Assembly: GCA_964016885.1 (NCBI GenBank)
Contig: OZ024749.1
Location: 14,136,001 to 14,200,000, forward strand
Source: Eledone cirrhosa
Lineage: Eukaryota
DNA length: 64,000 bases
Direction of reading: 5' to 3'
Shown: piece after piece, positions 1-10,297 of the stretch
How the letters are laid out: each line of letters begins with the position of its first letter
Position numbering within the stretch: the stretch's first letter is position 1
Notes under the pieces: generated by a model
Seen by the model: the letters and a program-made list of their open reading frames with translations, nothing else
Database searches by the model: none
What the model was told of the DNA's origin: nothing
Translations under genes and position numbers: made by a program

Positions 1-2640
1 CCGCTACATCTCTTGTGTACCCATTGTTTGCATTTGGGGCAGAGAATGGAGTTTCTACCTACACCTTTCCTACATACTGAGCAAGGCCATTTCCCTGAGG
101 GGATCTGGGTTCTGTTTTCTCGTCTACTTACAAGGACCTTAGTCTTTGTCATGTTGACTTTGAGGCCCTTTCTCTCTAGTCCCTGCTTCCAGGTTTGGAA
201 TTTATTCTCTAGTTCTACCATAGATTCAGCTATGAGTGCGAGGTCATCAGCATACAGGAGTTCCCATGGGCATCCGGTCTTAAACTCCTCCGTTATTGCC
301 TGCAGGACTATGATGAACAGGAGAGGGCTAAGAACAGAGCCCTGGTGGACCCCAACCTGTACGCTAAATTCCTCGCTATACTCATTGCCAATCCTAACTT
401 TGCTGACTGCTCCCCTATACATGGCTTGTACCGCTTTCACAAGCCATTCATCTACTCCTAGTTTTCTAAGAGCCCACCAGATTACTGCACGTGGAACTCT
501 GTCAAAGGCTTTCTCAAGGTCGACAAATGCCAAGTAGAGTGGCTTACTTTTAGCTAGGTACTTTTCCTGTAATTGCCTCACAAGGAAGAGGGCATCAGTG
601 GTGCCTTTCCCTGGTACAAACCCAAATTGCATCTCGTCTATATTCACCCGGTCCCTAATCAGCTGTGCTATAACTCTTTCTGTTACTTTCATGACCTGGT
701 CCATCAACTTTATACCTCTATAGTTTCCTCTATCTAGTGCATCGCCTTTACCTTTGTAGCAGTTGACAATGATGCTACTGCACCAATCTTTTGGTATGGC
801 CCCCTCTAGTATTACCTGGTTAACGATACGTGTGGTTATAGTGTGACCTACAGACCCAGATGCCTTCAGCATCTCGGCAGCTATACCCGATGGACCGGTT
901 GCCTTCCCTATCTTCATATCTCTGATTGCCTTACTTACTACGCTGCCGCTGACTTGTACTGCTGGTCCCTCTATAGGGTCTACGTGGGGTAGGGTCTCTT
1001 CTTCCCATGCATTCTCCTCATTTAGTAATCTATCATAATGACTCTTCCATGCATCTTTCTTCTCAGCACTTGTGAGGGCAAGCTCACCTTTATCATTCCG
1101 GATACACTTCTCTCCAATGACATCACAACTATCTCTGACACACTGCCTCGCAATCTTGAATACCTCCTGTTTCTGGTCCTCACGTTGTAAAACATGCTTG
1201 AATTTTCTATCCTCTGCTTCCCTCCTAGCTAAGTATACTTGTCGCCTAGCTTCCCTCTTGGTCTCTATGTAATGTACCCTGCTCCCCCCGTTCTTCCATT
1301 CTTTCCATGCCTGTCTCTTGGCCTTGACTGCTTCATCTACCTTATTGTTCCACCACCAAGTCACTCTCCTCCTGCTTGAGGTCTTACTCCAGCCACAAAC
1401 CTCATCCGTCGCCTCTAGTAAGTTATTTTTTAGGAACTCCCAGTTCTCTTCTACGTTAAATGTCTCTATCTGTTCTTCTTTACTGTCGTAGGCGTTGAGT
1501 AAAATATCTTTAAATCTGTTACTGGTTGAGGGGACTTTCAGCTTCCAGATCTTTCTTCTCCAGGTTGGCCTCTGTTTCAGGGCTCGTCTAGTTCTGACCG
1601 TGAGGTCGCTGACAACTAAGCTATGTTGGGATGTACATTCCTCACTAGGGAAGGCTTTTGTGTTTACGACCGTCCATCTGTCACGTCCTCTGATGAGGAT
1701 AAAATCTAACTGACTAGAGTGCTCCGGTGATCAGGTGGTTGTCGGGTTTTTTAAAGTTTGTGTTACATATCGACATGTCATTGGCGTCGCAGAATTCTAG
1801 AAGTCTGAATCCTTCCTCATTCCTTGTGCCAACTCCATGGCCTCCATGTACTCTATTGAAGCTGTCGCAGTGTTTACCTACGTGTCCGTTAAAATCTCCT
1901 GCAATGATTAGGAAGTCCTTGTCGTCTGTTAGAGCAGTAGTGTGTATTAGGGACTCGTAAAACCTATCCTTAAGTTCGTCTGGCAGCCCCGATTGGGGTG
2001 CGTAAGCTGATATTATTGTGGTAATTGTCTTATTCAGGACTAGTCTAAGTTTAATGATTCTTGCATTTACCCTGTACACTGAGATTACTTTATCTACCCA
2101 CTTGTCAGCTAATAGTATACCTACACCACCCATCCCATCGTCATTTCCCACCCAGAAAAATTTGTAGCACTGGCTTTTTCCTACAAGGACTCTAGCAGAC
2201 CCTCCTCTCCATCTAGTTTCTTGCACACAGCATACATCAACTTCCTTTCGCTCTAGCATTTCTACGATTTCTCCTGCTCTTCCTTTCATTGAGCCTACAT
2301 TGATGGTACCAACTCGGAGTTTTGGGCATTTGTCGACACTCGTAGGGGAGGGTCTCTGGGTTGGCGCTTCACGTGGGTGCTTGGTAGCTCGCAGATTCAT
2401 ATTTCATCTATTGATTCAGAGTTGCTCGTGTATTCCCAGCTCATCCATCCATAACGGTGGGAAAATTGAGGGCTAGAAGAACAGTGGTGGTGGGGTAATG
2501 GCAGGGTGTGTTGGGATGCGCCAGAGGAGGAGAGAGTTAGTTAGGCAGGTAGTAGCAGCAGCAGTGGAAATGGCATGCTAGGTTTGATTGGTCGAATAGA
2601 CTATGGTGGTGTGTGGGGGTGGGGGGGAGGGAAATTGTGA
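1..2640 (-). mobile_element. RTE-clade LINE copy 1 (APE endonuclease + RT + PHD finger), 3' end outside window
   Basis: ORF 2400-1714 has APE motifs (GTINVGSM, CVQETRW, SAYAPQ, GDFNGHVG). A small deletion near 1720 (LITGAL* versus LITYRSGEH in copy 2) shifts the frame. Translation then continues through [36 protein letters not shown] and CSVC..CPKC..HKRC to base 1. Confidence 0.95.
1714..2400 (-). pseudogene. RTE ORF N-terminal apurinic-like endonuclease domain (frameshifted into RT portion 1-1713)
   Basis: Exo/endo/phosphatase motifs as above; frameshift near 1720. Confidence 0.9.
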
Positions 2641-8600: not shown

Positions 8601-10297
8601 TCATAATATTAACGACAATATGTAGGCTAAAATACCTTCGTAGATTAGATGGATGGCTGGAATAATTGGAGTCAGCTCTAGTGATACATTTTAGCAGAGA
8701 AGAATGGGAAAGTATCTTATCTCTTCAATATTTTCAGATTGAATGAATTAGGTTAAAGACAGGGTAGTAAGCCTTAAAGAAGTGCATAGAGAGGGGGGTA
8801 GGAACTGAGGGTCGCATGGTAAATATCCAAGTTAATACTACATCAGTAAAATTAACAATAATAACGTCATGAAAAAAACTACTAAGAGAAACCCTAGAAA
8901 ATTTATCGCTAATACAGCAGGGAAAATTTAACGCTAATACAGCAGGGAACATCATAATATTAACGACAATATGTAGGCTAAAATACCTTCGTAGATTAGA
9001 TGGATGGCTGGAATAATTGGAGTCAGCTCTAGTGATACATTTTAGCAGAGAAGAATGGGAAAGTATCTTATCTCTTCAATATTTTCAGATTGAATGAATT
9101 AGGTTAAAGACAGGGTAGTAAGCCTTAAAGAAGTGCATAGAGAGGGGGGGGGGTAGGAACTGAGGGTCGCATGGTAAATAACTGAGAGAGATACAATAGG
9201 ATTAGAATACCGCATGGTAAATATCCAAGTTAATACTACATCAGTAAAATTAACAATAATAACGTCATGAAAAAAACTACTAAGAGAAACCCTAGAAAAT
9301 TTATCGCTAATACAGCAGGGAAAATTTAACGCTAATACAGCAGGGAACATCATAATATTAACGGCAATATGTAGGCTAAAATACCTTCGTAGATTAGATG
9401 GATGGCTGGAATAATTGGAGTCAGCTCTAGTGATACATTTTAGCAGAGAAGAATGGGAAAGTATCTTATCTCTTCAATATTTTCAGATTGAATGAATTAG
9501 GTTAAAGACAGGGTAGTAAGCCTTAAAGAAGTGCATAGAGAGGGGGGGTAGGAACTGAGGGTCGCATGGTAAATAACTGAGAGAGATACAATAGGATTAG
9601 AATACCGCATGGTAAATATCCAAGTTAATACTACATCAGTAAAATTAACAATAATAACGTCATGAAAAAAACTACTAAGAGAAACCCTAGAAAATTTATC
9701 GCTAATACAGCAGGGAAAATTTAACGCTAATACAGCAGGGAACATCATAATATTAACGACAATATGTAGGCTAAAATACCTTCGTAGATTAGATGGATGG
9801 CTGGAATAATTGGAGTCAGCTCTAGTGATACATTTTAGCAGAGAAGAATGGGAAAGTATCTTATCTCTTCAATATTTTCAGATTGAATGAATTAGGTTAA
9901 AGACAGGGTAGTAAGCCTTAAAGAAGTGCATAGAGAGGGGGGGGGGGTAGGAACTGAGGGTCGCATGGTAAATAACTGAGAGAGATACAATAGGATTAGA
10001 ATACCGCATGGTAAATATCCAAGTTAATACTACATCAGTAAAATTAACAATAATAACGTCATGAAAAAAACTACTAAGAGAAACCCTAGAAAATTTATCG
10101 CTAATACAGCAGGGAAAATTTAACGCTAATACAGCAGGGAACATCATAATATTAACGACAATATGTAGGCTAAAATACCTTCGTAGATTAGATGGATGGC
10201 TGGAATAATTGGAGTCAGCTCTAGTGATACATTTTAGCAGAGAAGAATGGGAAAGTATCTTATCTCTTCAATATTTTCAGATTGAATGAATTAGGTT
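2640..10297. repeat. Tandem array, 20 near-identical units of ~395 bp (long) or ~352 bp (short), organised as an 8-unit ~3.08-kb higher-order repeat
   Basis: The same short ORF start (MMFPAVL...) recurs 20 times. Short units lack the ~42-bp segment between two CGCATGGTAAAT direct repeats. The long/short pattern, the aacGgc variant and the long G-runs recur at ~3079-bp spacing. Confidence 0.97.

Follow-up and report, generated by a model that had tools for sequence, protein, structure and literature searches.

In mouse L1, tandem monomers are joined to the first ORF by a tether of ~250 bp (PMC5381506), and the promoter activity is raised by a second monomer (PMC9022269). According to the available text of PMC6454616, the monomers vary in number, with a mean of about 3 and with 50 in the longest promoter, and share truncation sites near the start site. 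The same text regards monomer-array 5′ ends as special to mouse L1, leaves undecided whether they are extended by unequal crossing-over or during insertion, and states that it is unclear how such arrays survive truncation-prone copying. LINEs of the RTE clade are described with a single ORF of ~1,000 residues, which encodes an endonuclease and a reverse transcriptase (RT), and with a microsatellite at the 3′ end (PMC8501958, PMC3391268, PMC9115989, PMC3747384). Perere-3, an RTE, carries a ribozyme at its 5′ end (PMC8501958), and the octopus RTE-2_OV has a 5′ UTR of about 600 nt. The available parts of these four papers make no mention of a 5′ array, and the word "tandem" is absent from that of PMC9115989. 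In Ogre LTR elements, tandem repeats of the 3′ UTR were amplified in place and gave satellites (PisTR-A); the satellite-origin table in the available part of PMC9659126 holds no case of a LINE 5′ UTR. In the accessible literature no published RTE with a 5′ tandem array was found, and Repbase entries, subscription papers or supplements could describe one.

The window (the whole stretch of 64,000 nucleotides of Eledone cirrhosa DNA analysed here) contains a tandem array at the 5′ end of an RTE-type element (Table 1). TRF called the tandem repeat at 2657-10298 with a period of 395 and 19.7 copies, and the unit boundaries were set by splitting the array at an anchor. The initial annotation had described 20 near-identical monomers of ~395 bp. 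The copy number by TRF supports this count, but the array has two unit lengths and an 8-unit higher-order repeat. The whole units comprise 15 long units (394-401 bp), which vary in length via a G-run of 6-13, and 4 short units (351-352 bp) without 43 bp that are present in the long ones. The entire array contains a single substitution, found in 3 units. The G-run pattern of the third block is an inexact match to those of the first two blocks.

Table 1. Features of the window copy and its insertion target
Feature	Position	Strand	Remark
Remainder of ORF	1-1730	-	reverse transcriptase and start of PHD finger
Start of single ORF	1714-2400	-	AP endonuclease domain; frame broken at 1725/1726
Leader, from array to ATG	2401-2640	-	unique, 240 bp, pyrimidine-rich, tether-like
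5′ tandem array	2641-10298	-	17-bp partial, 19 whole units and 293-bp distal partial
Partial unit	2641-2657	-	
Whole units	2658-10005	-	
Conserved unit segment	2820-2931	-	71-82% conserved in sister-family unit; recurs in every unit
First 8-unit higher-order block	3053-6131	-	units 2-9; private variant at 3205
Short units of first block	4639-4990 and 5385-5735	-	
Second copy of 8-unit block	6132-9211	-	units 10-17; variant at 6284
Short units of second block	7717-8068 and 8463-8813	-	
Beginning of third block	9212-10298	-	ends mid-unit; variant at 9364
Distal partial unit	10006-10298	-	
TA microsatellite	10297-10394	.	insertion target of the window copy; at 3′ end of an unrelated LINE

The last monomer had also been reported to run through ~240 bp of unique leader into the ATG at position 2400, and the leader found here confirms this: the minus-strand ORF starts directly after it, and neither a TSD nor a microsatellite was detected at the array-leader joint of the window copy. 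The distal array end lies mid-unit and abuts the TA tract at 10297/10298. The proposal that other 5′-cut LINEs end at the same kind of junction was borne out, since three of them in the window (ends at 12488, 25234 and 29470) also adjoin TA tracts. No N occurs anywhere in the array and element region of the window.

As in the mouse and rat L1 elements (L1Md A, Gf, Tf), a variable number of tandem monomers and a short tether precede the ORF. Unlike mouse L1, the element has a single ORF, a (GAT)n tail and no TSD, and it appears to belong to a different LINE clade. Its unit is about 400 bp long (about 1,100 at most where inner repeats are present) and has 35% GC, with 6 CpG in 395 bp and no CpG island; neither a common truncation site nor a full-length class was observed. 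The array, which resembles the mouse L1 monomers in its architecture and turnover, is likely convergent with them. Like Perere-3, locust Rter and octopus RTE-2_OV, the element combines a single ORF for endonuclease and RT with a microsatellite 3′ end; unlike these elements, as far as they are described in the available texts, it possesses the 5′ array and a PHD finger after the RT. The likeness to Ogre, as described in the part available, lies in tandem repeats of an untranslated region that are amplified in place. Ogre differs in being an LTR element with its repeats in the 3′ UTR, and detached arrays of our unit were not found among the matches listed.

The window copy runs ~1,010 bases past the window edge to its (GAT)n tail, and an 11-nt deletion at 1725/1726 shifts the frame of its ORF. 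In the intact copy L066, the ORF encodes 1,039 amino acids, with the endonuclease at residues 32-266, the RT at 557-761 and the PHD finger at 777-820. Exactly 1,039 amino acids were found in 77 of the 114 sampled copies, and the ORF was open for more than 1,000 codons in 82. The RTE clade is defined by the lack of both a separate long ORF1 and an RNase H. No RNase H family was detected in the element protein at E 0.01. A long ORF1 is also missing, as the leader has only 240 bp and the unit frames are broken; a coding role of the unit was ruled out because the frames are interrupted by the variable G-runs. The PDB matches to the element RT were L1, R2 and group II RTs only. One Atlas endonuclease cluster is named "craniofacial development protein 2-like", which we take, as a lead only, to be linked to RTE. 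The element has the structural features expected of an RTE, and the clade name is given on its architecture.

The 3′ end was (GAT)2-8 in all 77 copies with a located end, the anchor used for this including the first repeat. Target-site duplication is known for several RTEs, though it is not universal. In 28 copies with unique flanks, the candidate duplications were 2-7 nt (one of 11 nt, in a GT tract), as compared with 1-8 nt in shuffled pairs. A 32-nt match around the window copy was rejected because it lies in the TA microsatellite, and a 41-nt match at L080 because it lies in a tandem target. Since the family lacks TSDs, insertion in a single event is not demonstrable in that way. At L075 (contig C1432), the element lies between direct repeats of ~555 bp, either a very long TSD or a tandem-repeat target.

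Several other repeats were observed in the window. A second RTE-type copy lies in the TA tract 29471-29510. Both this tract and that at 10297-10394 directly adjoin the 3′ ends of LINEs of one other family, whose RT regions are at 10480-12489 and 30437-31321. An older RTE-type copy (22754-25238; 71-77% alike) has RT and PHD regions, and its 5′ part, 24699-25238, is inverted. At 15241-17478 on the plus strand, two long frames are split by one stop and gave no Pfam match above the cut-off; they contain an RT-like motif that resembles Penelope-like elements. Two different 48-bp minisatellites, at 46760-48514 and 56747-57792, have 36 and 22 copies, respectively, and a 200-N assembly gap (54834-55033) lies inside a 6-kb TA tract.

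The exact array-leader junction gave 615 matches genome-wide. The first 100 of these correspond to 99 loci, and all 99 are followed by the ORF start. When only the start of the ORF was used as query, 40 places were obtained, of which 30 were fetched: at least 100 bp of unit was present in 19 (the window copy included), a short stub in 2, and the remaining 9 end within the leader. Thus, in none of the 21 ORF-start loci that pass the junction was another sequence found beyond it. A unit-only pattern yielded 20 clusters among the 100 matches listed of 137; 14 were already known as linked, and the six new arrays all continue into the leader, ORF and 3′ end. With a second unit pattern (1,102 matches), the first 100 listed form 29 clusters on contig C1, 0-342 Mb, and all 29 lead into leader and ORF. 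Detached arrays, i.e., free satellite, were found in 0 of 29 and 0 of 20 clusters among the matches listed. The array is the normal 5′ end of this family and not a chance neighbour. The initial annotation had taken the array as part of the element, a view to be given up if other copies lacked the monomer and it occurred mainly as an independent satellite; neither was seen among the loci and matches listed. Its further proposal, that the array travels with the RNA or seeds satellite DNA, holds in that the array travels with the element and grows after insertion, but it does so only as arrays still attached.

Variants of the ORF and of the unit co-segregate through nested subfamilies. For four ORF sites against four unit sites, the tables were 55/0/1/39, 15/0/1/89, 62/4/0/9 and 80/1/1/5; since relatives share labels, these show common descent and not independent events. 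The sampled copies carry 3.2 private substitutions per 3.1 kb. The family is young, with copies about 0.1% diverged.

Exact-pattern counts along the element fell from 12,933 at the 3′ end to 2,861 in the middle of the ORF, then to 795 at the ATG and to 615 at the array-leader junction; older relatives may inflate the 3′ count. The successive losses were 0.90, 0.76 and 1.0 per kb. Within the first ~3.2 kb of array, the loss was 0.69 per kb (95% 0.55-0.85; 84 ends), as estimated from 96 of the 99 junction loci after two flank duplicates and one nested insertion were dropped. The median array length among the sampled junction loci was 836 bp. As the array loss rate is close to the ORF rate (0.76-0.90), the array was likely on the template and cut like the rest of the element; that is, it is likely copied from the element RNA and cut at random. 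The matching rates may in part reflect later growth.

No clustering of 5′ ends within the unit was detected: the densest 30-nt window held 14 of 83 ends (P=0.20). Prior to the re-phasing of six ends, their distribution over bins was uneven (chi-square p=0.005; KS p=0.56), and this fits the AT-rich 5′ junctions (0.76 vs 0.65 AT). A start site far upstream would be masked by truncation. In 43 of 77 copies the 5′ end is at a TA tract, and TA-rich flanks occur on both sides in 34 of 77.

Array lengths have a tail above 4 kb that is heavier than exponential. Of 95 arrays, 5 reach 6.4 kb (1.1 expected), a further difference from mouse L1, and two exceed 10 kb; at least 32 units are present in another array, which was found separately. 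Array length alone has precedent in the 50-monomer mouse promoter, according to the available text of PMC6454616. An earlier explanation, in which the 7.6 kb simply belonged to a single exponential tail (3 expected of 615), was dropped, because censored arrays proved longer.

Two duplicated loci at a distance of 750 kb share their flanks and their distal end but have 17 and 13 units; the proximal and distal units are common to both and the middle differs. Thus, the unit number changes in DNA after insertion. Single-unit variants occur in 22 of 25 arrays at 1.05 per kb, vs 1.22 in their own ORFs, although polishing artefacts could hide such variants. In the three longest homogeneous arrays, which were picked after looking, there are 2 variants vs 8 in the ORFs (p=0.0016). 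The window copy has 3 private ORF substitutions, whereas no substitution confined to a single unit was seen across 7.2 kb (P=0.03), and the one variant of its array occurs nowhere else in the genome and gives three matches here. Because of the 8-unit block repeat and this private variant, the window array appears to have about doubled in place. The copy was likely inserted with about ten units and then roughly doubled by block duplication.

The arrays of L127 and L104 combine units from two subfamily types, in alternation or mixed, which suggests conversion or template switching between subfamilies. The unit may also contain an inner 98-bp repeat, whose copy number in close siblings ranges from 1 to about 19; L094 (C1, 59.59 Mb) and its subfamily carry it in variable number. 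The pattern of this inner repeat gave 4,337 matches, the first 100 of which were listed, with a strand excess (2,549 vs 1,788), and a large block might lie behind this excess.

A homologous unit is present at 17 of 30 loci of a sister family whose ORF is 87% alike, and at 8 loci a further partial unit lies 390-505 bp upstream. The sister-family arrays are short: none of 28 reaches 800 bp, the longest is 701 bp, and several are interrupted by other insertions. In L186, L189, L194, L199, L205 and L207, the same short interspersed element lies at the ATT run of the sister-family unit. From the mouse L1 layout and this homologous unit, we consider it reasonably probable that the units act as stacked promoters. 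Against a promoter role stand the lack of a shared 5′ start site, the low GC content, the short sister arrays and the ATGs, of which each unit has 8 on the element strand. With 8 ATGs per unit, an RNA with many units would hardly be translatable by scanning; it would need internal initiation, or the transcripts would have to be shorter.

The explanation that we favour, although with some reserve, is a young RTE-type family whose 5′ array is inherited with the ORF, likely copied from RNA and cut at random on insertion, changed in length in DNA afterwards and likely used as a stack of promoters. For three of its parts taken jointly, namely inheritance as one unit, an RNA template of several units and block exchange after insertion, our confidence is high. 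The array, leader and ORF are observed to be inherited as one unit. The RNA template would hold several units, and reverse transcription would drop off at a roughly constant rate, which would leave about two units in most new copies and no defined full-length end in any. After insertion, misaligned exchange or slippage between units would add or remove blocks, as observed at the one locus pair and presumed for the other loci, and would thus generate the higher-order repeats and the long tail of array lengths. Repeated shrinkage and regrowth from few units may then spread new variants array-wide. If a promoter sequence is present in each unit, any copy cut within the array would stay transcribable, and elements with long arrays would act as the chief sources.

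The array might instead be a passenger without promoter function: an unstable minisatellite of the leader that depends for its transcription on read-through, from promoters of the host or nearby, and that persists only by regrowth. The unclustered 5′ ends and the AT-rich unit would agree with such an origin, as would the copy-number range of the inner 98-bp repeat in close siblings and a divergence between subfamilies that is far greater per base in the units than in the ORFs. However, none of the 21 junction-passing loci shows an array-less lineage with another 5′ end, and the sister family retains the unit architecture and a core block. We therefore regard a passenger array as unlikely, but worth keeping in mind.

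The chief rival is a rebuilding of the array by the RT whenever the element inserts: at the 5′ end of an RNA of one to a few units, the enzyme would jump back in register, or it would read a circle, so that the template would in effect have no end. Rebuilding would account for an array loss rate that equals that of the ORF without an end point, for lineage-specific variants that have, in many arrays, reached fixation across all the units, and for the short arrays of L028, L095, L108, L111, L127 and L137, in which two unit types alternate. It would lessen the problem of upstream ATGs, and no pair of independent insertions was found to share a position-indexed variant pattern beyond the second unit; under the favoured explanation, more than about two units on one RNA are accordingly a presumption. 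In contrast, the unit-number change observed in DNA suffices for periodic arrays, and each periodic variant is confined to one locus and missing in its siblings. The scarcity of variants in the longest three homogeneous arrays speaks for growth once they had inserted, and no circle-making ribozyme was found in unit or leader. Rebuilding by the RT is thus rather improbable. The same doubt applies to its fullest form, a LINE without a 5′ end whose RT regenerates the promoter array at each insertion on a short RNA, in a telomerase-like tandem writing; if true, the element would be unable to lose its promoter by truncation.

A self-cleaving RNA or a translation element might have escaped recognition in every unit. 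The 5′ end of Perere-3 would be a parallel: according to the available text of PMC8501958, a twister variant there supports translation. A cap-independent route would answer the upstream ATGs. This is very improbable, since no Rfam match near threshold was obtained for the unit or leader, no hammerhead core was found in them by pattern on either strand, the fold of unit plus leader was no better than shuffles (z -0.45), and the fixed 5′ end expected from cleavage was not seen. An independent satellite that adjoins the element by chance is scarcely credible, and so is an artefact of assembly: although the exact length of the window array is that of the assembly and polishing could hide single-unit variants, adjacency by chance is refuted at the family level by linkage to the element at all 99 sampled junction loci and all 29 unit clusters among the matches listed, and the unit-to-unit joint is present in short-read contigs of two runs, which may derive from the source sample and argue only against an assembler artefact. 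Low-depth pieces in runs of two other organisms were left out of account.

An RTE-type array that is inherited with its ORF and remodelled in DNA would be a second case in another LINE clade and would mean that the monomer-array solution arose twice. With about 600 arrays, ~0.1% divergence and nested subfamilies with marked units, the family suits a test of how such arrays survive, and its duplicated locus is a record of unit-number change. Consensus-based annotation can miss the true 5′ end of a LINE by filing the array as satellite.
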